DNA of 36,745 nucleotides from a virus (taxonomy: Duplodnaviria > Heunggongvirae > Uroviricota > Caudoviricetes), in the IMG/VR virus record IMGVR_UViG_2585427964_000003; one strand, given 5' to 3'. The number at the start of each line of letters is the position of its first letter. Position 1 is the first letter of the stretch. The notes under the pieces were generated by a model. That model saw nothing but the letters and a program-made list of their open reading frames with translations. It made no database searches and was not told where the DNA came from. This document shows positions 5,413 to 33,128 of the stretch, piece by piece. Position numbers and translations under genes: made by a program.

Positions 5413-6603
5413 TTAATTGCTGTTAACCGAGGTGACCAGATTTGCCAGGTATTTATCGGTAATACGCTGGCGCAGGGTCAGGTTTTCGAGAGGAGGCACC
5501 GGGGTATAGTCGTAGTCGATATACAGTTTTCCGGCCTTGAGGGTTTCCGCATCGTTGGATTCTTCGCTGAACCAGCAGGTCGCATCCACGATATAGCCGT
5601 TTGTTTTCAGCTCACGGAATTTGGCATTGATGCCGTCAACGATGTCGCGAATCAGCGTTGCGGTGATGGGCTTGTCCACCGCCCACATGTGCGCCTCAGC
5701 CATCGTGTCGGCCAGCACCTGCGCGGTGCGGGTGTAGTTTTCAAAGAGGAACAGCGGGTCATCGGAGCAGGTACGGTTACCCCAGAAGCGGAAACCGTCG
5801 CGGCGAATCAGCGTTGTGACGCCTGACTCGTTAAGCAGGTCAGCATCGGTGCCGGACTCCTGCAAATCCCAGAATACAGATGCGCTGATGCCGGTAACAC
5901 CGTTCACCCCGACATTGGACAGCGTTTTATGCCAGCCCTGCTCCTGGTCGATTTTAGCGCGCAGACCCAGCGCACGGGCGGTGGCATACGCGGTGGCAGT
6001 GGTACTGGTGACCGTATCCCATGCGAGGAAATCCGGCCAGATGACCATCAGCTCACGCTGGCTGAAATTCTGACGGTAGGCTTTCACCTCGGAAATAGTT
6101 TTACAGCCCCATGCGCTGATATACCCGAAAGCGCGCAGCTTCTGACAGACTGATGCCAGTGCAACAGCCACCTCTTTGGTGTCCAGTCCCGGCACGCCGA
6201 GAATACGCGGTTTAACACCAGTTACCGACTCCGCCGCCAGCAGGGCTTTCAGTCCGGTGTACTGACCGTTTTCGTCGGTGGTGCCGATGATATTGGAAAC
6301 GGTCTGCGCGAGTTTCGTTTCTTCGTCGTCGCCGGTGCCGTCTTCCACACGCACGACAACGGTGACCGGTTTTGACTGGTCGGCGATGGCCTGCAACGAT
6401 GCCGCCAGCGTGCCTTTTTTACCGGCCTTTGCAATTGCGCTCTGCACATTGGTAATCAGCACAGGTTTATTGAGGGGGAAGGTTTCCGCATCCGCATCGC
6501 TGGCCGTGCAAACCATGCCGACAATGGCAGTGGATACAGTGGAAATGACGCGGGTGCCATCGTTAATCTCCAGCACCTGCACGCCATGATGATAGTCACT
6601 CAT
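5413..6603 (-). CDS. FI: Contractile tail sheath protein gpFI
   Basis: 396-aa ORF, size and position match P2 FI. Confidence 0.92.
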   Translation of the reverse strand: MSDYHHGVQVLEINDGTRVISTVSTAIVGMVCTASDADAETFPLNKPVLITNVQSAIAKAGKKGTLAASLQAIADQSKPVTVVVRVEDGTGDDEETKLAQTVSNIIGTTDENGQYTGLKALLAAESVTGVKPRILGVPGLDTKEVAVALASVCQKLRAFGYISAWGCKTISEVKAYRQNFSQRELMVIWPDFLAWDTVTSTTATAYATARALGLRAKIDQEQGWHKTLSNVGVNGVTGISASVFWDLQESGTDADLLNESGVTTLIRRDGFRFWGNRTCSDDPLFLFENYTRTAQVLADTMAEAHMWAVDKPITATLIRDIVDGINAKFRELKTNGYIVDATCWFSEESNDAETLKAGKLYIDYDYTPVPPLENLTLRQRITDKYLANLVTSVNSN

Positions 6604-6780
6604 CCGTTTAACTCCGTGGTTAATGGGTGCAACTATTTTCTGTTGGGCAGTGCATGAGACGCTATTTGACCTGGCTGGTCAGTGGATGAAACAACAGATA
6701 AAGAAAAGGCGGGCAATCAGCTTGCCTGCCTTGATTTGTACTCTCTCTGTTTCCAACTGACAAATTACGTAACCAAAATT

Positions 6781-6796
6781 CTGTCAAATCTGACAG
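6781..6796 (-). terminator. Hairpin CTGTCA-AATC-TGACAG, followed on the minus strand by AATTTTGG; putative terminator of the 6864..7556 cargo gene
   Basis: Perfect 6-bp inverted repeat with 4-nt loop about 70 nt downstream of the minus-strand stop at 6864; short stem and short U tract, so weak. Confidence 0.3.
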
Positions 6797-6863
6797 CCTG
6801 TTTTGAGCGAAGAGCGGACCTGAGATTGTGGTATGCTAATTTATGGGGAGCAGGTCAATTGTA

Positions 6864-7556
6864 TTAGTTATCTTTTTGCTTTTCTTTATCCCATTTCTTT
6901 GCAGTGGTCTGATACCACTCTTCACGTGCTCGTTGTTCCTCGGCTCTGTCACTTGAATTATAGTTGTCTGTTTTAATTTTTTTGCTTCCCTGGGAAATCG
7001 GCCTCCAGTCTTCTCTAATCTTTTTCATCTGCTCAGCTATCTGTGTCATTGGACTCCTTGCACCTAAGTAGCTAACCCCCTCGAAAGAAGCCATATCATA
7101 AGAATACTCATTCCGCTCTCTTTCAGTTGAGCCCGGCTGTTTAGACCAGCTAATACTAACAGAATAAACTTGATCTTTAATCTGGTCATACTTACAAAGA
7201 CTGCTGTTGAGGGAATGGCCGTTTTTCAATACGCTAACCTTGCTAAATGGTATACCTTTATTTTTTCTATGTTCTGCATTAACCAGTGGGGGATTAAATC
7301 CGACTTCAATATCATAGGCTGGGGCATTTCCGGTATTAGCAATATTGATATCAAAATAAAAAGCAGCCCAAGAATTTGGTTCAAGAGTCACAACGACATG
7401 AGGTTGAACTGATGCGTCAACCATCCTTTTTGTCTCGTCTGCTAATAGCCTTGTTACTCTCCACAAGAAAAATGTAGCAACTGCTGTTAGCAATGCTGCC
7501 AAAGCGGAGATAAGTGTACTTACTGTGTTTATATGCTCTGCGATAAATTCGATCAT
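6864..7556 (-). CDS. Hypothetical membrane-anchored protein (cargo in Z/fun-equivalent variable locus)
   Basis: 230-aa ORF with AAGGA Shine-Dalgarno 7 nt upstream of ATG; one N-terminal hydrophobic helix (VSTLISALAALLTAVATFFLW), then a soluble domain and a lysine/glutamate-rich C-terminus. Visibly AT-rich compared with flanking P2 genes. No family recognised by eye. Confidence 0.6.
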   Translation of the reverse strand: MIEFIAEHINTVSTLISALAALLTAVATFFLWRVTRLLADETKRMVDASVQPHVVVTLEPNSWAAFYFDINIANTGNAPAYDIEVGFNPPLVNAEHRKNKGIPFSKVSVLKNGHSLNSSLCKYDQIKDQVYSVSISWSKQPGSTERERNEYSYDMASFEGVSYLGARSPMTQIAEQMKKIREDWRPISQGSKKIKTDNYNSSDRAEEQRAREEWYQTTAKKWDKEKQKDN

Positions 7557-8047
7557 GAGTTGTCCTTGGGGGCGTACTAATTGTTTTCAATACTAAAATA
7601 GCGCCGAGCTTGAAAAATTGCACACTTATAGTTCGATTTACCTCAACAGTTAAGGCTTCAACTTCCCCCATGCACCTCACCCAGCCCAAGACTGTATGAG
7701 GTCTGACAAAGAACTTCCTGACACTTGAAAACGAGGCAACGGCTAGGGTTTCTCGTAGGGCAAGGATTGAATACGAAGCCTGTATATTGCTCCGCGAACA
7801 CTGCTGAGGGCAGTTTAAATGTTGGGCGTTTATGTAGCCTTTCACTCACCAGCATGAGTTCAATGTCTGTGAGTTACCGACAACAATATAAAGGGGGTGG
7901 CATCATCATATATCCAAGCTAGAGTCAAATCCTCTAACTGGTTTTATGATCAGTGTCAATTGTTTGATTATTAAACGTTTACGAAGCAGCACGGGAGCCA
8001 TATAACTAATGGGCAGGTATAAGCCTGTATCACGAGGAATCAGTAAA

Positions 8048-8227
8048 ATGGCTGATGATAAGACCAAAATCGGTACCCCTGACAATGATTTAATAAGTAT
8101 CAAACAGGATTACGAGAGACGTGATTGGGCTGAAAAGTTTGGAGTTAGCGAGGCCAAACTTGTTCAAGCCGTACAGGCTGTAGGTCATTCGGCTAAGAAA
8201 GTACAGGCATGGCTTAAAGACCATTAA
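8048..8227 (+). CDS. Small DUF3606-like protein
   Basis: MADDKTKIGTPDNDLISIKQDYERRDWAEKFGVSEAKLVQAVQAVGHSAKKVQAWLKDH; the pattern (basic N-term, Y-E-x-x-W-x-x-KFGVS, AVxxVGxSA) matches my recollection of DUF3606 proteins. ATG at 8048 has an AGGAA Shine-Dalgarno; the ORF-track start at 8009 is probably upstream of the real start. Confidence 0.55.
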   Translation: MADDKTKIGTPDNDLISIKQDYERRDWAEKFGVSEAKLVQAVQAVGHSAKKVQAWLKDH

Positions 8228-8233
8228 TATATG

Positions 8234-8259
8234 AGCGCCTTTCTAGGCGCTTTTTTCTT
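8234..8259 (+). terminator. Rho-independent terminator after the DUF3606-like gene
   Basis: AGCGCCT-TTCT-AGGCGCT stem-loop (7-bp stem) immediately followed by TTTTTTCTT, 7 nt after the stop codon. Confidence 0.6.
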
Positions 8260-8332
8260 TGTCCTTTGGGAGATGATTTATGGCTAATAATGTATTACTT
8301 ACGACCTCATTAAAACGAAAGATTATGCGGCT

Positions 8333-8554
8333 GTGTATGATGCAATTAAATCTTTAGGAAATTGGGCTTTAACAACTGAATCGAACTGGTATGTTAACTG
8401 TAGTTACTCTGCCGAGGATGCAGCCAAAATTGTGAGGGCGGTCATGGATAGTGATGATAAGCTTATTGTTGTAGACGCAACCAATAACTCAGCTTATTGG
8501 TACAATCTCTCAGATGAAGTTAGTAACCAAATTCTGACTGAGTGGAACAAGTAA
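8333..8554 (+). CDS. Hypothetical small protein (GTG start in ORF track; possibly frameshifted)
   Basis: 73-aa ORF beginning with GTG and no Shine-Dalgarno. A 25-codon ORF with a strong GGGAGA Shine-Dalgarno starts at ATG 8280 in another frame and overlaps it. AT-rich. Confidence 0.35.
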   Translation: MYDAIKSLGNWALTTESNWYVNCSYSAEDAAKIVRAVMDSDDKLIVVDATNNSAYWYNLSDEVSNQILTEWNK

Positions 8555-8583
8555 TTAAAGGGGGTGGGTACCCCCCCCTTTAA
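8555..8583. terminator. GC-rich hairpin (AAAGGGGG-loop-CCCCCTTT), likely bidirectional terminator
   Basis: Begins 1 nt after the stop at 8554; lies between the plus-strand cargo genes and the converging minus-strand G gene. Confidence 0.5.
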
Positions 8584-8776
8584 TTCAGAAACTATCATGA
8601 TTGAAACATTAAATATACTGGGTTAATTCTTTCATCCTTGCTCCCTTGCTATATGTCCTGAAAGCGTCCTTTTTAGCCTTCTGCTCAGTATGTCCGGTAA
8701 TGGCACAGAGCGGACTGTCAGATTAGGCTTTACTCTGTGCCATAGATATGTAAGCTCCCACCAGAGCTCATACAAC

Positions 8777-9304
8777 TTATTGCGGCATTTCCGGCCATTC
8801 AGGATTTGCAGGATCCACACGACTGACCAGAACGCTGTAGCGTTCCCAAGACTCCAGCCGTGTGCGCTCCTCCTCTGTTGCCATGTTCAGTCTGACCGCG
8901 CGCTCCAGCGGCAAAATCACGGATTCAGCATCTGCAAGAAGTCTGGCTTTCCGAATTTCTGCCTGCTGCTGCAATTCCTCTGCCGTATAAATGCGTTTAA
9001 TCACTTTGCCGTCCTTAAACATCCAGTTCCCTGAAATGTCCGCCCGTCGGTTAGCAGTAATATCCGCCACTTCAACAACACTTAATCCATCCGGTCTGAT
9101 AGCTGTCACATCCTTTTCCACATAGCGGATGATATTATCTTTGTCGTACGCTATTTTTATCGTGTCATCAGCAAAATACTTTTGTTGTTCGTACCAGTTC
9201 TTACCATCTTCTGAAAAAAACCAGACAACATCAAAGTCCTTTGTCAATTGATATTGTTCAACCGTTTTTGGATTACCCGCCTTAATATTTTTTAAATGCT
9301 GCAT
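8777..9304 (-). CDS. G: Tail fibre assembly protein gpG
   Basis: 175-aa ORF (P2 G is 175 aa) immediately downstream of H. Confidence 0.85.
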
Positions 9305-14063: not shown

Positions 14064-14849
14064 ATGTTCAGTGATAATGTGACTAATGCGTGGTGGTTTA
14101 TCTCTTTGTATCTATTTTTATTAATAGCATTAACATTTGTTACCTTTGGTAAAAGTAATCTTATGAGGTTTATTGCACATCATTTCAATCTTGAGTATTC
14201 AGACAGAAAGTTAAAAATGCTCGACAAAAAATGGCGCGACATTCAACTATTTAAAATAATTAACGGAATCAATGTATCAGGCATCGAAGATGTGAGAATG
14301 ATACAGCAGGGGCTGATTGATGGAAAACTAAAAACATCGTATTTTTTCCTTACTCGCTTCTGGGGTGACATAACAAAACCACCACACATAATTAAAACAA
14401 TAATTGTAATTCTGGCCAGTATTATTTATATTCTCTTCGCATGTTATATACACAACAAACAATCCGCTATAGTAAGAGATGCCATAGGCATACCATATAA
14501 AAATATGATGTACTATGTTTATAGTGACAAAGTTCTTTTATCCTTCAAAAATAAAGCAGTTGAATTTAATAAAACTTATAGCCTTGCCGATTGCAAGAGA
14601 CTGCAAAACGTATTTATAAAAGACACACTTCCTGAAATCGCCTGCAATAAGCTCTTACAGCTAAACGAGGAGGACTCGGAATGGTTAAGTCAGGAGATTA
14701 AAGATAATAACAGCCAAAAAAAAGCATTATTAATAATATCCCTCATCTATTTCATTTCAGGTCTGGTTATATTCCTGTCATATACAAAATTCCTTTACGC
14801 CAATAAGAAGGTTGTAGAATACAAAGCATCAAATAAAAATCACTCATAA
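14064..14849 (+). CDS. Hypothetical integral membrane protein, three predicted TM helices (cargo in orf30-equivalent locus between V and S)
   Basis: 261-aa ORF on the opposite strand to the late operons; GAGGAGAG Shine-Dalgarno 4 nt before ATG; hydrophobic segments WWFISLYLFLLIALTFVTF, IIKTIIVILASIIYILFACYI and ALLIISLIYFISGLVIFLSY; strongly AT-rich with Lys/Asn/Ile-rich codon usage. Confidence 0.65.
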   Translation: MFSDNVTNAWWFISLYLFLLIALTFVTFGKSNLMRFIAHHFNLEYSDRKLKMLDKKWRDIQLFKIINGINVSGIEDVRMIQQGLIDGKLKTSYFFLTRFWGDITKPPHIIKTIIVILASIIYILFACYIHNKQSAIVRDAIGIPYKNMMYYVYSDKVLLSFKNKAVEFNKTYSLADCKRLQNVFIKDTLPEIACNKLLQLNEEDSEWLSQEIKDNNSQKKALLIISLIYFISGLVIFLSYTKFLYANKKVVEYKASNKNHS

Positions 14850-17575: not shown

Positions 17576-17779
17576 TTACTCCCACAGATTGACAGTTTCA
17601 GCCACGGGCGCGGTCTGAACGTCGGGCAGTTCGACAGCGGTGCCGTGTGGCAGCACCGCACCCAGTTCAGCCAGTCCCGGATTTGCGGCGAGCACGGTCT
17701 CAACCACGCCCTCAGTGCGCCCGTAATACCGGACACAGATGGCGTCGAGCGTGTCGCTCTGTAGCGCAAAGGTCTTCAT
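17576..17779 (-). CDS. X: Tail protein gpX
   Basis: ATG at 17777-17779 (MKTFALQSD...) gives 67 aa as in P2 X; the start overlaps the L stop as ATGA. The ORF-track start at 17848 is upstream of this. Confidence 0.85.
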   Translation of the reverse strand: MKTFALQSDTLDAICVRYYGRTEGVVETVLAANPGLAELGAVLPHGTAVELPDVQTAPVAETVNLWE

Positions 17780-18288
17780 CAGATTTGACTCACGATGCAG
17801 CGCGGCTTGTCCTGGATACGCGCCACCGCCCAGCGCATATCCCGCCACAGTTCATCAATGGTGCTGTCAATGCTGTCAGCCTTCTTGTCACCTTTCGCAC
17901 TGGCATCCACGCCGCGATAACGCTCATAAAGCGACGCGGTCGCCATCGCACACACGGCGCGCTCGTAGTAAAAAACTTTGATGCTTTCACCGTCGATGTC
18001 GTCCGCCGGGACGTCCGCCAGACGCGTAAAACCGGCAGCAATTTTCTGTTCGCGGTACTCGTACAGCTCCGCATTCGTTTCAGCCATGCCTGACTTGATG
18101 GCCTCACGCAGACGGGCGGGGGCGACGGTCTGCTCAAGGCGCATACGTTCCCGGACGCGCTTCGGATCGATATCGGGAAAAAAGAACGTGTTTTTAATCA
18201 CCGGCTCGTCGCCTGCCGGTTGCGGGATGACCACCGTACCCTCACCGGACACGGGAGCCTCCTTTCGCGGAATAATCAGCGTCATCAT
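17779..18288 (-). CDS. L: Head completion protein gpL
   Basis: ATG-ATG at 18283-18288 (MMTLIIPRKE...) with a GAGGTAG Shine-Dalgarno gives 169 aa as in P2 L; the ORF-track start at 18348 is probably too far upstream. Confidence 0.85.
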   Translation of the reverse strand: MMTLIIPRKEAPVSGEGTVVIPQPAGDEPVIKNTFFFPDIDPKRVRERMRLEQTVAPARLREAIKSGMAETNAELYEYREQKIAAGFTRLADVPADDIDGESIKVFYYERAVCAMATASLYERYRGVDASAKGDKKADSIDSTIDELWRDMRWAVARIQDKPRCIVSQI

Positions 18289-18387
18289 GACTACCTCTGA
18301 AAAGTCGGGCGGTGGACGCCGGTGCAGTGTCAGGTGATTCACCCTCACTGACCGGCGTGCCGCCCTGGCGCGGGGCGCATTCGGTTG

Positions 18388-18658: not shown

Positions 18659-20200
18659 ATGCCAACAGTTCCAATTTCTATGAGAAAACTTAAAGAAATT
18701 CTTAGGCTTAAATACGGTGTTGGACTCAGCCATCGACAAATTGGTCGTAGTCTTGCAATCTCCCCTTCCGTTGTATCCAGATATGCTAATCGGGCGGCTC
18801 AACTTGGCATAAAGCAGTGGCCCTTACCTACAGGATGGGATGATACAAAACTAAAACATGCGTTCCTTCAGACCCAGGTTAAGATGAAGAAGCACTCTCT
18901 GCCTGACTGGGCTACAGTACACCGGGAACTGCGTAATAAATGCGTGACGCTGCAGCTACTCTGGGAAGAATACTGTGAGCGTAATCCAGGCGGTTTTTAC
19001 AGCTATAACCATTACTGCCGGATGTACCGTGAATGGCTCAAAACCACTTCACCATCAATGCGTCAGGTACATAAAGCTGGCGAAAAACTTTTCGTTGATT
19101 ACTGTGGACCTACCGTTGGCGTTACCGACCCTGAGACCGGAGAAATAAGAACTGCTCAGGTCATCGTAGCTGTTCTCGGGGCATCAAGTTACACATGGGC
19201 AGAGGCCACCTGGTCTCAGCAGCTTGAAGACTGGGTGATGAGTCATGTTCGCTGCTTCCAGTGGTTGGGTGGCGTTCCTGAACTTGTTGTTCCGGACAAT
19301 CTGAAAAGCGCCACATCCAGGGCATGTAAGTATGATCCTGACGTTAACCCTACCTACCAGCAGATGCTTGAGCATTATAATGTCGCAGTTTTGCCTGCGC
19401 GGCCACGTAAACCGAAAGATAAAGCCAAAGCTGAAGTTGGCGTTCAGGTTGTTGAACGCTGGATCATGGCCCGAATCAGGCATGAGATCTTCTACAGCCT
19501 TGCATCGCTTAATCAGCGCATTCGGGAGTTGCTGGAAAGACTGAATAACAAAATAATGCAGAAGTTGGGTTATTCACGTGCAGAACTCTTCATCCAGCTT
19601 GATAAACCCGCACTGAAGCCTCTTCCTGAAGCCAGTTACAGTTACACCCTGGTGAAGAAAGTCAGAGTTCATGCCGATTACCACGTGGAAATCGACAAAC
19701 ATTACTACTCGGTTCCATGTTCGCTGTTAGGCCAGCAACTGGAAGCATGGATCTCCGGAGAACTGGTAAGACTCTTCAATCAGGGGCAGGAGGTTGCTGT
19801 GCACCCGCGCAAGCGTACTTATGGCTACAGTACCCGCAACGAGCACATGCCTGAAGCTCATCGACAGCATGCCACCTGGACGCCAGAGCGTCTTCTGGAA
19901 TGGGCGGGGCACATAGGCAGTGAAACTCATAGTTATGTGCTTCATATACTGAACTCTCGTCCACATCCGGAACAAAGCTATCGCTTCTGCCTTGGACTCC
20001 TGAACCTTCATAAAAAATACAGTAAAGCCAGACTTAATGCAGCATGTGCAAGAGCTCTGAAAACAAAGGTATGGCGTCTGTCAGGTATTAAATCGATCCT
20101 GGAAAAAGGTCTGGATAAACAACCTGTTCAGGATCCAAAACCAGATCTGTTATCCACGATGGAACACGAAAACGTACGCGGCAGTGAGTATTACCACTGA
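18659..20200 (+). CDS. istA: IS21-family transposase IstA
   Basis: 513-aa ORF with N-terminal helix-turn-helix (LSHRQIGRSLAISPSVVSRY) and a DDE-type integrase core; AAGGA Shine-Dalgarno before the ATG. Confidence 0.85.
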   Translation: MPTVPISMRKLKEILRLKYGVGLSHRQIGRSLAISPSVVSRYANRAAQLGIKQWPLPTGWDDTKLKHAFLQTQVKMKKHSLPDWATVHRELRNKCVTLQLLWEEYCERNPGGFYSYNHYCRMYREWLKTTSPSMRQVHKAGEKLFVDYCGPTVGVTDPETGEIRTAQVIVAVLGASSYTWAEATWSQQLEDWVMSHVRCFQWLGGVPELVVPDNLKSATSRACKYDPDVNPTYQQMLEHYNVAVLPARPRKPKDKAKAEVGVQVVERWIMARIRHEIFYSLASLNQRIRELLERLNNKIMQKLGYSRAELFIQLDKPALKPLPEASYSYTLVKKVRVHADYHVEIDKHYYSVPCSLLGQQLEAWISGELVRLFNQGQEVAVHPRKRTYGYSTRNEHMPEAHRQHATWTPERLLEWAGHIGSETHSYVLHILNSRPHPEQSYRFCLGLLNLHKKYSKARLNAACARALKTKVWRLSGIKSILEKGLDKQPVQDPKPDLLSTMEHENVRGSEYYH

Positions 20201-20211
20201 TACGGGATCCA

Positions 20212-20961
20212 ATGATGAATCATCTTTACGAACAACTGACCGCACTTAAACTCACCGGCTTCCGTGATGCGCTTAAAAAGCAACTTGCTCAGCCGGGCAC
20301 ATACCAGGAGCTGGGCTTCGAAGAACGCCTGTCATTACTGACAGCAGAAGAACTAACCTGCCGTGAAAACAGGAAGGCAGAGCGTCTGATCAAACATGCA
20401 CGGTTCAGACTTAATGCTGAGTTATCAAAGCTGGATTATCGTAACAATAGAGGGCTGGACAGGGCCCTCATCCGTTCACTCAGTCAGGGAAACTGGTTAA
20501 CCCTGAAACAAAATATTTTACTGACCGGGGCCACCGGCAGCGGTAAAACGTTCCTGGCATGTGCACTTGGTCATAATGCCTGCCGACAGGGATACAAGGT
20601 CTACTATTATCGCCTTAAAGCGCTGATGGAACAGTGCTATCAGGGGCATGCTGATGGAAGATACAGCAAACTTTTGACCAGGCTGAATAATAGCGATCTG
20701 CTGCTTCTGGATGACTGGGGGCTGGAACCTCTCTCATCAGAACAGCGTAGCGACCTGCTGGAAATAGTGGATCTGATGTACCAACGAGGCTCAATCATCG
20801 TAGTGAGCCAGTTGCCGGTGGAAAACTGGTACAAAATGATCGGAGACTCCACACATGCGGATGCCATCCTAGATCGACTGGTTCATGGCAGTATCAAGAT
20901 CGAACTTAAAGGAGAATCAATGCGGAAAATACAATCTCCGTTGACCGAAGGAGATCAGTGA
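20212..20961 (+). CDS. istB: IS21-family ATP-binding helper protein IstB
   Basis: 249-aa ORF with Walker A (GATGSGKT) and Walker B (LLLLDDWG), the typical IstB AAA+ architecture, immediately downstream of istA. Confidence 0.88.
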   Translation: MMNHLYEQLTALKLTGFRDALKKQLAQPGTYQELGFEERLSLLTAEELTCRENRKAERLIKHARFRLNAELSKLDYRNNRGLDRALIRSLSQGNWLTLKQNILLTGATGSGKTFLACALGHNACRQGYKVYYYRLKALMEQCYQGHADGRYSKLLTRLNNSDLLLLDDWGLEPLSSEQRSDLLEIVDLMYQRGSIIVVSQLPVENWYKMIGDSTHADAILDRLVHGSIKIELKGESMRKIQSPLTEGDQ

Positions 20962-21018: not shown

Positions 21019-21711
21019 TCACCGATCTCCTTCACGGTAATACGCAGCCGCTTTGGGCTGCGGCTTCGGTTTCAGCTCCCGCTCCAGTCGTTCAATCTCT
21101 TTTTTGACGCCTGCCTGACAGTCGAGCTGTGTCGCACGTTGCAGGTGCGCCAGCGCCCCTGCGGCATCACCAGCGTCACGCAGAAACAGACCGGTGATTT
21201 TGTGCAGCTTTGCGCGCACTTCATCAGGCATGTCTGCCGTGGCGGTAAGTTCAAGGGTGTCCGTCAGCAGGCGGGTATCCACGGATTCACCGGCAGCGTG
21301 AGCGCGCATGGCCGCGAGTGCCACTTCCTCGGTGAACATGTACGGCGGGGTGCGGCGGTGTTTACCCGGCATGGTCAGACCGTACTTCAGGGCATAACGG
21401 GCAATCTCCAGCGCACCGGCAATATCGCCGGTATCCAGACGCCACAGCATGACCGTCATCAGAATGTCATCCTGTGCACCTTTGCCCTGCTCCAGCACGC
21501 CGTTCACCCACGGCAACCAGAACGGCAGCAGTTCGCGTTTTTTCGCGGCCTTCAGCTCTTTTGAATAAATCGCTTTCAGTGTGCGCTGGTCTGCGGCGAG
21601 CTTAACCAGCATCTGCTCATAGACAGTTGCATGTCGCAGCGGGGCGGCTTCCCGCTGCGCGGTCATCGCTGCCGAGACCCGCATCATGTGGCGCTGTGCG
21701 GGACTCGTCAT
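21019..21711 (-). pseudogene. M: Terminase small (endonuclease) subunit gpM, 3' end interrupted by IS insertion
   Basis: 230-aa ORF MTSPAQRHMMRVSAAMTAQ...; its last 8 codons (AYYREGDR-stop) are encoded by the IS right terminus. Native sequence runs up to the GCCGC duplication at 21047-21051. Confidence 0.8.
21047..21051. repeat. Target-site duplication GCCGC (right copy)
   Basis: Identical 5-mer to 18461-18465, directly flanking the right IS terminus. Confidence 0.7.
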
Positions 21712-27016: not shown

Positions 27017-27901
27017 TCAGGCGCAAGTTGGCATTGAGACCCCTTTCAGGGTATTAGGAATAATTATTTCAGGAGAAAAAATCATCACTTCCTCTCCAGA
27101 TTTTTTGAGATGTGCTGTATATTGCAATGAATACTCAACTTGCGGAAATCCATTATAAATATCTTTAATTTCCTTAGCGTTATCATAAGAAACAAGCCAA
27201 TTTGGGAAATTAATTTCTGTGAGTTTCTTCATAACCAATACATGGTCATCATGCTCATAAAAATTCCTGTAAAGCCCTTGCCCTTTAATATAGTAAGGAG
27301 GATCCAAATACAAAAGAATTTTATTTTTATCCACCTTTCCCATATTATCCATAAAATTCAAGGCATCAAGAAAATCCAAAGCATCCAGATTAGTTACTAC
27401 TATTCTTTGATTATAATTTGCTATCTTCTCAATTCTTGAAATTAAATCCGCCCTGTTAAAGCGAACATCCATTTTCCATTTTCCATTTTGTGATTTCCCG
27501 CCTATAACCCCCGCCTTGAGAATACCTGAACGATTTGTTCTATTTAAGAAAAACGCAGCAAAGCCAACCTCAAGCTTAGTAAACTCAGAAGGATTCGAAA
27601 TAACATAGCGATGAAAAGACCATTCATCCATATCTATCTTTGCTCGGCTAATAAGTCGGCAAAGCTCATCAGTATCACTAACAACAGATGACCAAAAAGA
27701 ATAAACAGCAAAATCTGCATCATTTATATAGATTTTACGGACATACTCTTCCAATAATAATTCTAAAGCCACCCCTGCACCACCAGCGTAAGGTTCTGCA
27801 TATGCTCCATCATTCAACGAGTTTTTTTCAATAACATCTTTTAAAAAGTAAGATAACTTACCTTTCCCGCCGGGGTATCTTAATGGAGTATAAAATTTCA
27901 T
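27017..27901 (-). CDS. Dam-class (D12 family) N6-adenine DNA methyltransferase
   Basis: 294-aa ORF with GAGGG Shine-Dalgarno; motifs YPGGKGKL near the N-terminus, PYAGGAG (SAM-binding FxGxG-like) and LDPPYY (catalytic DPPY). Strongly AT-rich; lies in the tin/old-equivalent position. Confidence 0.8.
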   Translation of the reverse strand: MKFYTPLRYPGGKGKLSYFLKDVIEKNSLNDGAYAEPYAGGAGVALELLLEEYVRKIYINDADFAVYSFWSSVVSDTDELCRLISRAKIDMDEWSFHRYVISNPSEFTKLEVGFAAFFLNRTNRSGILKAGVIGGKSQNGKWKMDVRFNRADLISRIEKIANYNQRIVVTNLDALDFLDALNFMDNMGKVDKNKILLYLDPPYYIKGQGLYRNFYEHDDHVLVMKKLTEINFPNWLVSYDNAKEIKDIYNGFPQVEYSLQYTAHLKKSGEEVMIFSPEIIIPNTLKGVSMPTCA

Positions 27902-27938
27902 AAATCCCTCTCATTCCTGATTTTGTAGTTTATCAGTT

Positions 27939-27958
27939 TCTGGACATCCATGTCCAGA
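27939..27958. promoter_or_regulatory. Perfect palindrome TCTGGACA-TCCA-TGTCCAGA upstream of the methyltransferase gene (candidate operator)
   Basis: 8-bp perfect inverted repeat with 4-nt spacer in the 69-bp gap between the two cargo genes, 38-57 nt upstream of the methyltransferase ATG. Confidence 0.4.
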
Positions 27959-27970
27959 TGTAGACAAATC

Positions 27971-29476
27971 TCACTCACTCCAAATAAGGCTTAATAACAA
28001 CTCAAAGTTATCCCACTCAGTGTTGACAGCCTCTTTTGAGGGAATTAAGTGTGGGTTATGTACATACTGCTGCAATGAACCATCATGTTTAGTTATTTGG
28101 CTCGAGAAAGTTATTACAGCCGTACATTGACTCCCCGTCATCTTTTTATTTTCCCGAAGGAAATTAGCACACATTTTAACCTTATCATGAAGCCCTGGAG
28201 TTCTATGTGGTTCCTTAAATTGTAACTTGTTTTCTTCAACAAAAGTGCTTACAGAGAGATCTATAAATATTCTCAACAATATTGAGATAGCATTAGGGGT
28301 GTTATCAAATGTCAGATGCGACTTAAGCTCATTAAATATTCTAGAGCATTTCTTATGCCCTCTAAAATTAAATTTCACATAAGATGGCACCAACACATTA
28401 CGATCTACTTTAGGAGGAGTTTTTCCCTTGTTTTTATTCTGTTCCGTGCCCGAAACTTTAGATTTACTCTCTTCTGTGCCTACATGTCTAGAATAATCAT
28501 CTTCCTGTTTATCCACACCTGTATTCTTTAAGGCATCACCTTCTGAAAGACCTACTTTCTTTACACTCACAGATGCATCATTTTTGTCAATAGAATCATG
28601 TTTTTTCTCTGTAAGAAAAGATTTAGGCTCCAGTAAACTCCACGGCTTATCTAAAAGAGATTCTGAAGGTTTTATTTTTTGTTCAATAATAAATGTAACC
28701 CTGTCATCTTGGCTACGAATCCTATTAACAGTAAAACAAGCCTTACCTTTATCATCCTCTTCAATCATTACATCTAAAATATTTTTTAATTGTGCACAAA
28801 AACGTTCATAAGGCTGATATGAGTATAGAACTCCATTAATGCTTTTTAAATTAAAATAATCCCTCACCTTTAAATCACCAAAAAGACGCGTGATGTTTGT
28901 GATTTTTAAAAGTCTTTTTTTAGCAATTATCTCTTTATATAAATCAGTATTGAACTCTATAAATGTAAGTATTTGATTACCAAATGACTGCTTACCCATC
29001 CTAGCCAGATGTCGTGCTTTTTCTGTTGCAGTCCATTCAACTCTTCCAACTCCAGCATTTTGACCAGTATGCTTTAAATTGACCCAATGCTCATATTCAT
29101 CATCGTCAAAAAGAACGCAGTTATCTATAACATTAATATCTTTAAGCTGAGTAATCTTAAGTTTTTCAAAAGCTTTCCGTGCTTTTTCTGTTGGTGCAAG
29201 TCTAGGAGAGTGTAAAAGTTTAAGGGCTGTAACTCGACGATTACCTTCAGCAACGACGAAAAAGCCAGATTCCTCTTCACTAGGATAAACTAATATGTTT
29301 TCAGACGGATCTAAACCTTTCGAAGCAATATCTTTAGCCAAGCGATAAATGCGGTCGTACTGCAAGTCAAGCATCTTGGCAATAGCATCACGCTGATTTT
29401 CTGCTGACGTCGGGAAACGAGGGTTATCAACATCCAAAAGTAACTTATTGATATTCATTGATTTTAGTTGATTCAT
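27971..29476 (-). CDS. ParB/Srx-fold nuclease-domain protein with long C-terminal extension (cargo gene)
   Basis: N-terminal region LLLDVDNPRF ... ILVYPSEEESGFFVVAEGNRRVTALKLL carries the ParB N-terminal domain signature (GxRR). A Lys/Glu/Ser-rich low-complexity linker is followed by a roughly 150-aa C-terminal domain of unrecognised type. Start chosen at ATG 29474-29476 (AGAGGA Shine-Dalgarno 8 nt upstream, 501 aa); the ORF track extends to 29545 (524 aa). AT-rich. Confidence 0.7.
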   Translation of the reverse strand: MNQLKSMNINKLLLDVDNPRFPTSAENQRDAIAKMLDLQYDRIYRLAKDIASKGLDPSENILVYPSEEESGFFVVAEGNRRVTALKLLHSPRLAPTEKARKAFEKLKITQLKDINVIDNCVLFDDDEYEHWVNLKHTGQNAGVGRVEWTATEKARHLARMGKQSFGNQILTFIEFNTDLYKEIIAKKRLLKITNITRLFGDLKVRDYFNLKSINGVLYSYQPYERFCAQLKNILDVMIEEDDKGKACFTVNRIRSQDDRVTFIIEQKIKPSESLLDKPWSLLEPKSFLTEKKHDSIDKNDASVSVKKVGLSEGDALKNTGVDKQEDDYSRHVGTEESKSKVSGTEQNKNKGKTPPKVDRNVLVPSYVKFNFRGHKKCSRIFNELKSHLTFDNTPNAISILLRIFIDLSVSTFVEENKLQFKEPHRTPGLHDKVKMCANFLRENKKMTGSQCTAVITFSSQITKHDGSLQQYVHNPHLIPSKEAVNTEWDNFELLLSLIWSE

Positions 29477-29832
29477 CAACATATCCTCTGTTGAATCTTT
29501 ATGATAAAAATTAATTATTTTTATCATAAATGATAGCGTAAACATAGTCTTATGAACGACATCAGCCCTGAAGCTTCAAAACTATCATTTACGTTTGCGA
29601 GGCACCATCTATCACATTGATTTATAATAAGTATCTTTATCTTCACTGCATTGCTCTCAAAAAATCACATAGATGGAAATTCCCCGTTGACACACTCCCA
29701 AGTGATGCAGATACATTTCAAGTGCTTCATACACATGATAACGGCTATCCCCCTAAATTCTGTGCGTTTCTTTTCCCTCCAGCACAAGGTTGAAATATCT
29801 TGCGTGCAGCTTTACTTTGTGAATCTTTGTCA

Positions 29833-32124
29833 TTATATCCGCGCCATTACTGTTGAGAATCCCGGCCACTCATCAGCGACCGGATACGTGAATTTTTTCC
29901 CGTCATAATTTACGGTCGCGCCACGCGCCAGCACCTCAAGCTCCCATCGTTGCGGCCTGATACCGTTCTGAGCGAGGTCAACGCGGATACGGGTAATTTG
30001 CAATCGTTCCGACCGGGTCAGTCTGGCCGACGGTGCTATTTCATGCGGTTTTAACGGGCTTCCGGCTCTTTGCTGACGATTTGGTGTTCTCAGTCCGTGT
30101 TTTAATGCGCCCCTGAGCGCCCTCACGACCTCCGGGTCATTCCATTCGATAACACCGTCATCAACCAGATTAAGCACTGCTGCGACGTGCTCAGAAGGTG
30201 TGGGAGCCGGTAACGAAGTATCACCACTGGTGAGCTTTCCACAGTTATTGACAGGACTCCGAGGCGCGGCGATGCCGCTTTTTAAAGTCAAAGGCTCAAC
30301 GACCGGAACTTTCAGCACAATGCGCCAGTCCGTCGTTCTGGTGATATGAATATGACGCGCGCCGAGATGCGGCGCGTAAATGCCGACCACTCTCTCGACT
30401 TCTTCCTCATACTCGTTAACGTCATCTGACGGGCTACGGGCGACCCTGACAGTCTGACAATCGCGCGGGACATTTGCCCCACCCTGCGCGCTGATATACA
30501 ACGCAAAATCACCACTGTCTGCGGCGGCGCGTGCAGCCTCGACGCGTTCGTCAAACTCATCAGCAATGCTGACGCCGCGAGGCAATTTGCGTAGCTCACG
30601 GTAAGCCCCCATTGTCGGCAGGCCAACCGTTTTAAATTGCGGGATGCGCCACGTTGACGCCCATGCGGTAACAGCCGCGGCAGTATCTTTAAGCGGCTTA
30701 CCGGTATCGTTATCGAGCTGACCATCCAGTGCATAGCCGTCGATATTTTTTGAAATGTATTTCGCGATATATCCCGCAGCACCGCCCCGGTTAAGGTGTT
30801 TTGCCTGAAAACGGTTTCGCGCAGCGCCTCTTTCGTCACCATCCTCTTTGAGCGCATAGCGACGCATGATTTCGATAATCTGGTTACGCTGGCGTGGATT
30901 ACAAAAAAGCATCATATGCCAGTGCGGCGTTCCGTCGTGGTGTGGCTCGACGACACGCAAACCGTAGACCTGTAAATCATTATCCTTGAATGCCGTGCGC
31001 ATCAGGCTCCAGATACGGCAGAGATAACGCTGCGCATCCTTTGGATTAAATGCCTCATCGTTCCAGCCGTGATTAAGCTGAACGGTTTTACTTTCGCCTT
31101 TTCCGACCTGACGTGTCGGGTGATACTTTGACGGCGCGGTCAGCGTGATAAACATCCCCACATCACCCTCTGCGGCGGCGTAACGCTCAATACCGGCAAT
31201 GGTGTTCATCAGCTCCATCCGGCGAATTTCAGGATTAGAAATACTGCCCATCACCTTACTGATAAGGTCGATGCGCTCGCCGGTTTCCCTGTTTTCAAGG
31301 TCACACGATTTAAGAAATTCCAGATTTGCCTGGCGGCGCGCACGCACATCACGAATGGCATGTTTACTGGCATAAGGAGAACGGTCTTTATTGACCTCCC
31401 CGACAGCTATCAGTAAAGCTTCATGCCAGCGCATACGCTGGCCTTTAAGCTGATGAGTCCACCACTCATCGTTAAACAGGCGGGCAATGGCAGAATATGC
31501 CTGCCTCGTGGTTATCTGTCCTTTACGGTATTTTTTCCAGTAGAGCGGGGAAATATTGAAAGCACGTGCAGCGCCAGCAACATGACCATACAGATGATCC
31601 TGCGCCTCATCCGTAAACAGTGATTCTTTTTCGCCATGCGCATCCACCCAGGCATCGCAGAGTTCCTCATACATCATGAAAAGCTGCGATGAAATACGGG
31701 CGGCAAACTTTTTCAGCTCCTTGTCATTCATCCCCGGCAGACGCGCATAGTGGTCACGCTCAGCCAGAAACAGCAACGACGCGTCGGTGTTCATTTCATG
31801 GCGCTGATTCACGCGCTCAATGCGCGGCCATAAACGACGCTGAAAAGTGGATGTGAGGAAATAAAACCCGTGTACCGGGCTTTTATTGCGCCGGATGTAG
31901 TCATAGCGTGAAGTAAACAGCGAGCGCAAAAAGTAAGGCAGGCGGTTAATCGTGGATAAAACCCCTTGCACCTGACGCATCTCGTCACGTGTAAGGGGTC
32001 TTTCGCGCCCGACGGCCTCGCGTGGCGCGTTCCATGCATAAGCACCGGTAAACGTCTTACCGGTGCCTGCAGCAAATGCTGACGTAGTTACGCAGGTGTA
32101 TTGCTCCTGGAAAGAATGACTCAT
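29833..32124 (-). CDS. A: Replication initiation endonuclease gpA (rolling-circle)
   Basis: 763-aa ORF MSHSFQEQYTCVTTSAFAAGTGKTFTGAYAWNAP...; size and position match P2 A (about 761 aa from memory). Confidence 0.92.
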   Translation of the reverse strand: MSHSFQEQYTCVTTSAFAAGTGKTFTGAYAWNAPREAVGRERPLTRDEMRQVQGVLSTINRLPYFLRSLFTSRYDYIRRNKSPVHGFYFLTSTFQRRLWPRIERVNQRHEMNTDASLLFLAERDHYARLPGMNDKELKKFAARISSQLFMMYEELCDAWVDAHGEKESLFTDEAQDHLYGHVAGAARAFNISPLYWKKYRKGQITTRQAYSAIARLFNDEWWTHQLKGQRMRWHEALLIAVGEVNKDRSPYASKHAIRDVRARRQANLEFLKSCDLENRETGERIDLISKVMGSISNPEIRRMELMNTIAGIERYAAAEGDVGMFITLTAPSKYHPTRQVGKGESKTVQLNHGWNDEAFNPKDAQRYLCRIWSLMRTAFKDNDLQVYGLRVVEPHHDGTPHWHMMLFCNPRQRNQIIEIMRRYALKEDGDERGAARNRFQAKHLNRGGAAGYIAKYISKNIDGYALDGQLDNDTGKPLKDTAAAVTAWASTWRIPQFKTVGLPTMGAYRELRKLPRGVSIADEFDERVEAARAAADSGDFALYISAQGGANVPRDCQTVRVARSPSDDVNEYEEEVERVVGIYAPHLGARHIHITRTTDWRIVLKVPVVEPLTLKSGIAAPRSPVNNCGKLTSGDTSLPAPTPSEHVAAVLNLVDDGVIEWNDPEVVRALRGALKHGLRTPNRQQRAGSPLKPHEIAPSARLTRSERLQITRIRVDLAQNGIRPQRWELEVLARGATVNYDGKKFTYPVADEWPGFSTVMARI

Positions 32125-33128
32125 TCACATACACCGGCATAGACACTACTGCAAACGGCTTTATCATTCGCCGAAGCCAGTAAATCAAACTGAGTACCCC
32201 CACGCGTTGTCATTGTCCAGTCATGGTAGGTTTCTATTCCGTATGCCTCGACTGTTACAATCTCAATACGACGTTCTGCGCGTAGCGGATCATGTGTGGA
32301 TGGGAAAAAAGTGGAATTTCCCCGACGGGAGCACGACGCAACCAGTCGTTCCCATTCAGCAACCCGTTTTATTTCCTCCGGCCACCGGCGAAAAATTTCT
32401 GCCAGTTCAGATTTACGGACATGAATACATGGCATACAACCAACACGGCCACACCCCTGCTGATATAACGGATTTGGCTTAATGTCATGTCTTCTGGCTA
32501 TTGCAAATACATCTTCATGCTTCCAGTGCAAAATCGGGCGATATACATGCAATCCGGGGGTGTTGTCTGCATCCTCTTCCCAGACAGGTAAAGCAGCGCG
32601 TGATGGCGATTCCTGAGCACGCACTCCCTGCCAGCTAATCACTTCCTCAAATTCATTGAGTAAAGGCAATATTACCTGAGAACGCACGGGCTCATGTTTC
32701 AGTTCAAATGTGCAAAATCTGGCTTTGGTTGATGGGAAACGCCCCTTCCACAGACACAAATCAAGAAACGGGATACCCGTTGGTTTGAGAATTTCCAGCG
32801 CACAACTGATGCGCTGGTGCGCTTCTTCTTCCGACATTCCACAATCGTTAACCAACAAATCAGGCCATTTGGTCTGGATAAACTTGCGCTTTGATTCAAT
32901 CCGGCAGGAAAAATCAGCTCTGACTCTTTTAATTGGGCCAAGCCGTTTTTCCAGATAATCCAGATATTTCATTGTCTGTGGATGTTCATGTCCCGTATCA
33001 GCAAAAACCGGCAATATGGGTACATTTTCTTCAATAGCGACAAGCCACTGAGCAAGGCTGTCCTTTCCACCTGAAACAAAAATAACATTGATGGTATTTT
33101 CAGTATGGCAACGAGCATCAGTAATCAT
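32121..33128 (-). CDS. PAPS reductase / DndC-like PP-loop ATP pyrophosphatase family protein
   Basis: 335-aa ORF with N-terminal PP-loop VIFVSGGKDS and a C-terminal cysteine cluster (GCGRVGCMPC). Start overlaps the orf83-like stop and its stop overlaps the A start (ATGA at both junctions). Confidence 0.75.
   Translation of the reverse strand: MITDARCHTENTINVIFVSGGKDSLAQWLVAIEENVPILPVFADTGHEHPQTMKYLDYLEKRLGPIKRVRADFSCRIESKRKFIQTKWPDLLVNDCGMSEEEAHQRISCALEILKPTGIPFLDLCLWKGRFPSTKARFCTFELKHEPVRSQVILPLLNEFEEVISWQGVRAQESPSRAALPVWEEDADNTPGLHVYRPILHWKHEDVFAIARRHDIKPNPLYQQGCGRVGCMPCIHVRKSELAEIFRRWPEEIKRVAEWERLVASCSRRGNSTFFPSTHDPLRAERRIEIVTVEAYGIETYHDWTMTTRGGTQFDLLASANDKAVCSSVYAGVCE

Follow-up and report, generated by a model that had tools for sequence, protein, structure and literature searches.

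Small superinfection-exclusion proteins anchored in the inner membrane and encoded by single-gene phage or prophage morons are exemplified by T4 Imm, P22 SieA, HK97 gp15 and lactococcal Sie2009, each of which acts within a narrow host and phage range. Phage P2 has three lysogenic-conversion genes, fun(Z), old and tin, and these are generally regarded as AT-rich. Here we describe ORF1, a gene resembling these morons in a 36,745-nt stretch of viral DNA (IMG/VR record IMGVR_UViG_2585427964_000003, hereafter the window), which we identify as a P2-like prophage. ORF1 encodes a 230-aa protein with a single transmembrane (TM) segment and lies at the position that Z/fun holds in P2. Our leading reading, tentative and a little short of an even chance, is that ORF1 acts alone against phages or competing mobile genetic elements (MGEs) from the cytoplasmic side of the inner membrane. 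The setting is a familiar one, and the preliminary description of this DNA had called the locus a known site for exclusion and defence cargo. Genes gained by horizontal transfer are well documented in the Z region of P2-like phages, where they include the T5-exclusion gene fun(Z) (PMC3091744), and a second report terms the locus a mixed-purpose hotspot (bioRxiv 10.1101/2024.10.15.618418). Morons of unknown function at the fun(Z) site were noted in the paper on phage R18C (PMC6823313), the analysis of Rousset et al. (2022) covered only the Q-A (old/tin) hotspot, and of eight unknown P4-hotspot cargos chosen at random, six turned out to be defensive (PMC13586616).

ORF1 (6864..7556, minus strand, ATG start) is flanked by the tail-sheath gene FI (5413-6603, minus strand; Phage_sheath_1) and the tail-fibre assembly gene G (8777-9304, minus strand; Caudo_TAP), an interval occupied in P2 by Z/fun on the same strand. 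The equivalence to Fun(Z) is positional only: the P2 protein is longer (299 aa) and has no Pfam match, and the two share no sequence similarity (BLASTP E = 1.4). The GC content of ORF1 is 0.38-0.43 compared with 0.56-0.60 in FI, and a Shine-Dalgarno sequence, AAGGA (7563-7567, minus strand), can be read 6 nt before the start codon. In these respects, as in the single N-terminal TM helix and the charged, K/E-rich tail considered below, the gene is as the preliminary description had it. ORF1 is a genuine gene under purifying selection, since dN/dS against enterobacterial orthologues is 0.04-0.2 and the profile of the family recovers 1,667 clusters at 50% identity (532 of them at E < 1e-10). We class ORF1 as an AT-rich moron that was gained by horizontal transfer and specifies a membrane protein with a single pass.

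Both the sequence and the locus are already deposited and catalogued, and no characterised family claims the protein. ORF1 is 98% identical in amino-acid sequence to ORF1 of P2-EC53, a 'putative lysogenic conversion protein' (AJ512682, CAD54906) that has been in GenBank since about 2002. That record, titled 'Bacteriophage P2-EC53 proviral Z-region, ORF1', also annotates a ribosome-binding site for the gene, a -10 signal, and left and right inverted repeats. The 2.17-kb FI-G interval as a whole is 97.5% identical to AJ512682 and 97.9% identical to the viable phage R18C. When ORF1 of the window was compared with P2-EC53 ORF1 and R18C QDP43518 (98-99% amino-acid identity, with the same FI-G position, neighbours and inverted repeats), nothing material differed, and the window carries a 4-bp deletion in the third gene of the cassette described below. 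The preliminary description had recognised no family, which holds insofar as no characterised family matches, but ORF1 is a full-length member of phrog_11802 (unknown function; E = 3e-147, residues 1-230 of 230), and PGAP, in recent RefSeq, gives the label 'DUF8453 domain-containing protein' to a copy at the same locus with 99% identity. None of the P2-EC53, R18C, PHROG 11802 and DUF8453 records gives a function. Searches of Pfam and NCBIfam returned only sub-threshold noise (Phe_tRNA-synt_N, TMEM260, SecE and SLATT_4 on the TM helix), and a profile search against PDB sequences produced nothing but TFAM and designed coiled coils (E at least 0.04), which match along the charged helix and were set aside as compositional. 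Clear homology to a housekeeping or structural phage protein, the outcome that the preliminary description had named as contrary to its proposal of an exclusion or abortive-infection protein, was found in none of Pfam, NCBIfam, PADLOC and the PDB sequences.

The family spans alpha-, beta- and gammaproteobacteria, with a distant relative in Bacillus phages. The cargo is found in only three phage records; P2 itself has no ORF1, nor do most P2-like phages, and 20 of the 22 matches in viral contigs are the same E. coli cassette. All-vs-all clustering of the genes within six positions of the homologue at 43 loci from the three proteobacterial classes revealed no conserved partner; the family is therefore autonomous, a stand-alone module, and we rejected a toxin-antitoxin (TA) or multi-gene system for the family as a whole. 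Neighbours recurred only within groups of loci that share several of them, namely those with ParB_N and DUF932 and those at the queA-tgt-yajC site in Pseudomonas. The single-gene character claimed at the outset is a reasonable description of the family and a less secure one of this particular locus, since in E. coli ORF1 nearly always occurs with two further genes as one cassette.

Homologues turn up repeatedly in accessory or defence-type parts of MGEs. In Pectobacterium the homologue resides in an integrative and conjugative element (ICE; TraG/TraI), in Xanthomonas and Klebsiella in integrase islands, in Yokenella in an island with a resolvase gene and a YagK/YfjJ-family gene, and in Salmonella in an islet between ParE-type and Gp49/HTH-type TA pairs. 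Enterobacter and E. coli NCTC11023 carry it in a resolvase/DEAD-helicase element, with AbiJ_NTD4 as the neighbour in one and DUF3800 in the other. In two different elements, an AbiJ_NTD4 gene and the homologue converge; one arrangement of this kind belongs to a P4-like satellite remnant, present in about 460 complete E. coli genomes and marked by Icd-like, DUF5375 and primase genes, where an ORF1 paralogue and the AbiJ-NTD4 gene converge. Gabija, a type IIG restriction-modification (RM) gene and IetA/MzaA lie upstream of homologues in single loci, and GmrSD is found near homologues in one group of ICE loci. These contexts have the pattern of a mobile accessory or conflict gene, and the association with defence is suggestive. 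As a separate observation, the homologue in the Pectobacterium ICE (loci L006-L008 and L055) adjoins a divergent gene for a 532-aa sigma-54 activator, and the matching set of neighbours includes a PADLOC hit to 'RtcR_PspF2--CARF_AAA_HTH' (E = 2e-96) that is not assignable to a specific locus.

To describe the protein we combined conservation with an AlphaFold2 model built from a 27-sequence alignment (mean pLDDT 78). The model comprises a helix at residues 2-49, a seven-strand beta-sandwich at 54-154, a low-confidence linker, and helices at 169-188 and 201-229, giving the soluble domain anticipated by the preliminary description a predicted immunoglobulin (Ig)-like fold followed by charged helices. 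The TM segment (7464..7523, minus strand; codons 12-31) is the sole hydrophobic stretch (residues 12-30, mean Kyte-Doolittle hydropathy 2.05), with no second segment elsewhere. Its N-terminal flank in ORF1 (N-terminus MIEFIAEHINT) has no K/R and its C-terminal flank has four. Across the alignment, the N-flank contains 0-2 K/R in all 27 members, and 0 or 1 in 26 of them; the C-flank contains 3-4 K/R in 22 members, in which the hydrophobic window is in register, and 1-2 in the other five, in which the window is shifted or R36 is replaced by Gly. Because these counts fit the positive-inside rule, we predict an N-out/C-in topology with about 11 residues outside, one TM helix and about 200 residues in the cytoplasm. 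In three homologues that are greatly extended at the N-terminus, a hydrophobic signal-like segment comes first, then an acidic linker and the conserved TM helix, an order that may lend the same orientation weak support. No Pfam domain was detected in seven members whose N-termini are extended by up to about 100 residues or in three with shorter extensions. An anti-sigma factor was considered and rejected, as such factors usually have the opposite layout to the one predicted here, an outside N-terminus and a cytoplasmic C-terminal domain, and no gene for a sigma factor lies next to the homologues.

The most conserved stretch of the protein is neither the sandwich nor the tail but the helix that leaves the membrane (7410..7487, minus strand; codons 24-49). 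Conservation was computed over 93 diverse representatives with a median identity of 35% to ORF1, and in these the juxtamembrane helix, residues 32-49, is more conserved than the sandwich. A heptad a/d/e stripe (T24/A25, T28, L31, T35, L38/A39, T42 and M45/V46) occupies one face and runs, on a continuous helix, from the inner half of the membrane to about 15 residues into the cytoplasm; T28, L31, T35, L38 and T42 are each conserved in 91-95% of the representatives. Over residues 14-48, the periodic signal in conservation is strongest at 100 degrees per residue (permutation p about 8e-4). As conservation is both strongest here and helical in its period, we infer that this Thr/Leu face is a helix-helix interface, probably homo-oligomeric, rather than part of a passive anchor. 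The predicted Ig-like sandwich (7083..7409, minus strand; codons 50-158), delimited by the model and by conservation, has near-invariant residues at N74, G76 and A80 (an 'NTGNA' loop), P89, W137 and Y151. The C-terminal charged helices (6867..7052, minus strand; codons 169-230) comprise a conserved helix at 169-188 (KKIREDW), a D203-R204 motif in which R204 is near-invariant, and a poorly conserved, K/E-rich terminal helix; residues 166-230 (65 residues) contain 16 K/R and 12 D/E.

Fold matches to the model were weak (TM-scores 0.25-0.41), and the best of them include Kir/KirBac channels; archaeal pilins and flagellins are also among the matches. Kir/KirBac channels place a cytoplasmic Ig-like domain after a TM helix, the order predicted for ORF1, and the Hailong defence system, whose effector has an IRK domain, represents a kind of membrane effector with this order of parts (PMC13586616). 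We rejected ORF1 as a channel of this type, which has two TM helices, a pore loop and a selectivity filter, given its single hydrophobic segment and the lack of an IRK match in Pfam. A type IV pilin-like protein with a class III signal peptide was also rejected, as the N-terminus is without K/R and the fold matches are weak.

If ORF1 is defensive, we envisage that the Thr/Leu heptad face of the TM and juxtamembrane helix would drive assembly of a helical bundle, with the cytoplasmic sandwich and the conserved helix 169-188 serving as a sensing or binding module. The output of activation might be a perturbation of the membrane that leads to abortive infection (Abi), or else a block to entry of an incoming genome. 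We lean modestly towards the former because almost all of the conserved mass is predicted to be cytoplasmic and because the protein is conserved across three proteobacterial classes and many types of element; such breadth would suit a general trigger or effector better than a block directed at a phage-specific receptor or injection step. T4 Imm, P22 SieA, HK97 gp15 and Sie2009, which are not known to be related in sequence or fold to the ORF1 family, differ from it in this respect, as the latter extends over three proteobacterial classes and is predicted to be mostly cytoplasmic. The full picture, in which DUF8453/PHROG 11802 would be a new and widespread single-gene anti-phage family whose Thr/Leu helix bundle forms a gated membrane lesion under the control of its own cytoplasmic Ig-like sensor, a Kir-like combination of sensor and pore reduced to 230 residues, and in which the inverted-repeat cassette would shuttle the gene between P2-like and lambdoid phages, satellites, ICEs and chromosomes, is considerably more doubtful than its core.

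The putative anti-phage activity of ORF1, which like its topology, its oligomerisation and its expression in the lysogen we infer, draws its support from the hotspot location, the company of Abi, TA, RM and ICE genes, the conserved helix face, the weak fold matches to Kir channels, and the presence of PD-Lambda-5 in the same prophage. The latter system is complete and occupies the old/tin (Q-A) hotspot (27017-29545, minus strand), with an A protein of 524 aa (E = 6e-168) and a D12 methyltransferase-like B protein of 294 aa (E = 1e-121). Several observations weigh against this reading. PADLOC-DB v2.0, including its Rst and PD-T4, PD-T7 and PD-Lambda systems, which are known from P2 and P4 hotspots, returned no family for ORF1 at E up to 1 in a search confined to catalogues no newer than 2023, and we found no paper that names the protein or its family. 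A sigma-70 promoter scan gave no consensus match near ORF1, the best site in a looser scan matching at 8 of 12 positions. Ig-like and CARDB-like domains are commoner in extracytoplasmic proteins, and the cytoplasmic placement of this one is predicted only. Many homologues are singletons between housekeeping genes, such as enolase and rib-rodA in a sphingomonad and queA-tgt in Pseudomonas, and defence genes are adjacent in a minority of loci only. Finally, the paralogue in the P4-like remnant, which retains 74% nucleotide identity to ORF1 (L010 6045-7848, E. coli Ecol_AZ147), has lost its first 39 or so codons including the TM helix. Transposase fragments lie directly before the point at which its 5' end is cut short, and annotation treats it as an intact hypothetical protein of 190 aa; these TM-less copies in about 460 E. 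coli genomes show that the gene is readily lost.

Some of the same observations speak for the strongest of the alternatives, a lysogenic-conversion or host-fitness factor with no part in defence, in which the protein would be a membrane-anchored cytoplasmic scaffold that modulates an envelope, transport or stress process of the host or helps to maintain the element that carries it. We hold this to be possible but clearly less probable than an anti-phage role. The name given to ORF1 in the AJ512682 deposit, the mixed purposes of the Z/fun hotspot and the many chromosomal singletons beside housekeeping genes all agree with it, and conservation in three proteobacterial classes suggests a conserved host partner rather than a specific phage. 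Yet ORF1 has no enzymatic or transport domain, the recurrent company of the family is Abi, TA, RM and MGE genes, and rapid horizontal mobility with repeated loss is typical of conflict genes.

A second alternative arises from the cassette in which ORF1 travels. The preliminary description had missed two plus-strand genes at this locus and the inverted repeats that bound all three: a DUF3606 gene (8048..8227, plus strand; 59 aa as annotated by PGAP) and a phrog_1090 gene (about 8280..8554, plus strand), which encodes 92 aa in APEC O78 and R18C. In the window, the 4-bp deletion lies near 8290 and shifts the frame of the latter, leaving a 73-aa ORF with a GTG start (8333-8554). The FI-side arm (6787..6819) and the G-side arm (8692..8724), respectively the 'right inverted repeat' and 'left inverted repeat' of AJ512682, are 33-nt imperfect inverted repeats, and their backbone halves, AATCTGACAG (6787-6796) and CTGTCAGATT (8715-8724), form a perfect 10-bp inverted repeat. 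The same block was found in three settings: the Z/fun site of P2-like prophages; the chromosome of Pantoea leporis, between the acetoin operon and an integrase fragment with no P2 prophage present (L013 8380-11000); and lambdoid E. coli prophages, among the morons that separate the replication genes from hokD/Q (L087 4999-6690). The Pantoea copy and the window cease to be homologous within the two arms, at about 6803/6804 and 8707/8708, and we therefore place the ends of the cassette at 6804 and about 8707. With the same block in three settings and breakpoints inside the repeat arms, the comparison of these sequences identifies the cassette as a discrete unit moving between unrelated phage families and chromosomes, in agreement with the inverted-repeat annotation in AJ512682. 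The ORF1 copy in Pantoea leporis (93% identical; L013 10001-10603) stops at about 200 codons, apparently through a frameshift, and is without the C-terminal charged helix.

The three genes might accordingly be parts of one system, for example an effector with regulators or an antitoxin, a proposal that overlaps with the anti-phage reading and that we consider unlikely. Among 5426 complete E. coli genomes, the FI-G interval is present at >=80% coverage in 99, ORF1 at >=80% coverage in 104, and the DUF3606 plus phrog_1090 part in 102, so that about 99-102 of some 104 ORF1-carrying genomes have all three; the repeat-bounded block moves whole into all of the settings above, and ORF1 and the DUF3606 gene share an intergenic region of about 490 bp (7557..8047), from which they diverge. 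This linkage does not extend beyond the cassette: both neighbours are near the homologue at just one of 44 genome loci, that of the 93%-identical Pantoea copy, and are missing from the Kosakonia locus (89% identical) and from those of all the more remote homologues. Moreover, in the window the phrog_1090 gene is frameshifted and ORF1 is intact, and direct repeats around the two plus-strand genes hint at a separate sub-module. These 21-nt repeats (…AAAGGGGGTGG), at 7880-7900 and 8547-8567, bracket the DUF3606 and phrog_1090 pair, which may have been acquired separately; the second of them is part of a GC-rich hairpin (8553..8585) that is terminator-like on both strands and lies between the cassette and G.

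A role as a lysis or morphogenesis accessory of the P2 lytic cycle (holin, antiholin or tail-assembly helper), as might be imagined for a small single-TM protein encoded among late tail genes on their strand, is very improbable, for homologues are also found in ICEs, integrase islands, a satellite remnant and phage-free chromosomal sites, P2 and the majority of its relatives do without the gene, terminator-like hairpins stand on both sides of the cassette, and the P2 genes that we checked (L for head completion, M for the small terminase, and tail genes) are present elsewhere in the window. A holin or lysis regulator in particular was rejected, ORF1 being unlinked to the lysis cassette and located between tail genes within the repeat-bounded unit, with homologues in non-phage contexts.

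An autonomous anti-phage role remains the reading that we prefer, and ORF1 is a reasonable, testable defence candidate rather than a surprise. If defensive, it would represent a compact, partner-less family of membrane effectors, with about 1,700 clusters at 50% identity across Proteobacteria, that was missed by PADLOC v2; as a single-gene family it would be new, though of a kind already known, the hotspot-borne membrane proteins of Abi or superinfection exclusion, and it would assign a function to cargo of about 2% of complete E. coli genomes and of R18C, a viable and genetically manipulable phage. If not defensive, ORF1 would be an ordinary uncharacterised moron. In either case, the near-identical inverted-repeat cassette in P2-like prophages, lambdoid prophages and a Pantoea chromosome is an example of moron transfer between unrelated phage families.

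Further signals surround the gene. The small hairpin that the preliminary description placed after ORF1 is present past the stop codon (6781-6796, minus strand; CTGTCAGATTTGACAG + AATTTTGG), with a 6-bp stem and then AATTTTGG, and falls within the P2 backbone half of the inverted repeat. A terminator-like hairpin with an 11-bp stem lies upstream of FI (6706-6732, minus strand), followed on the minus strand by the T-run TTTTCTTT; the stem was scored by the tool on the plus strand, and the T-run was read from the sequence. In the intergenic region, AJ512682 marks only a -10 signal, at roughly 7885, and an Rfam scan of 6500-8900 gave nothing near gathering scores. A 142-aa ORF (7417-7845, minus strand) that overlaps the start of ORF1 is without a family and was treated as spurious.

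Further features lie in other parts of the prophage. An IS21-family element (18659-20961, plus strand), with an istA-like gene of 513 aa (rve and Mu-transposase C domains) and an istB of 249 aa, sits between L (17779-18348, head completion) and M (21019-21711, small terminase). The orf30 moron site between V and S holds a 261-aa ORF (14064-14849, plus strand) without a Pfam or PADLOC family, and R18C has a different unknown ORF at this site. Beside the replication gene A lies a gene for a 335-aa PAPS-reductase-domain protein (32121-33128, minus strand), which gives weak PADLOC matches to SspD, BrxP and DndC.

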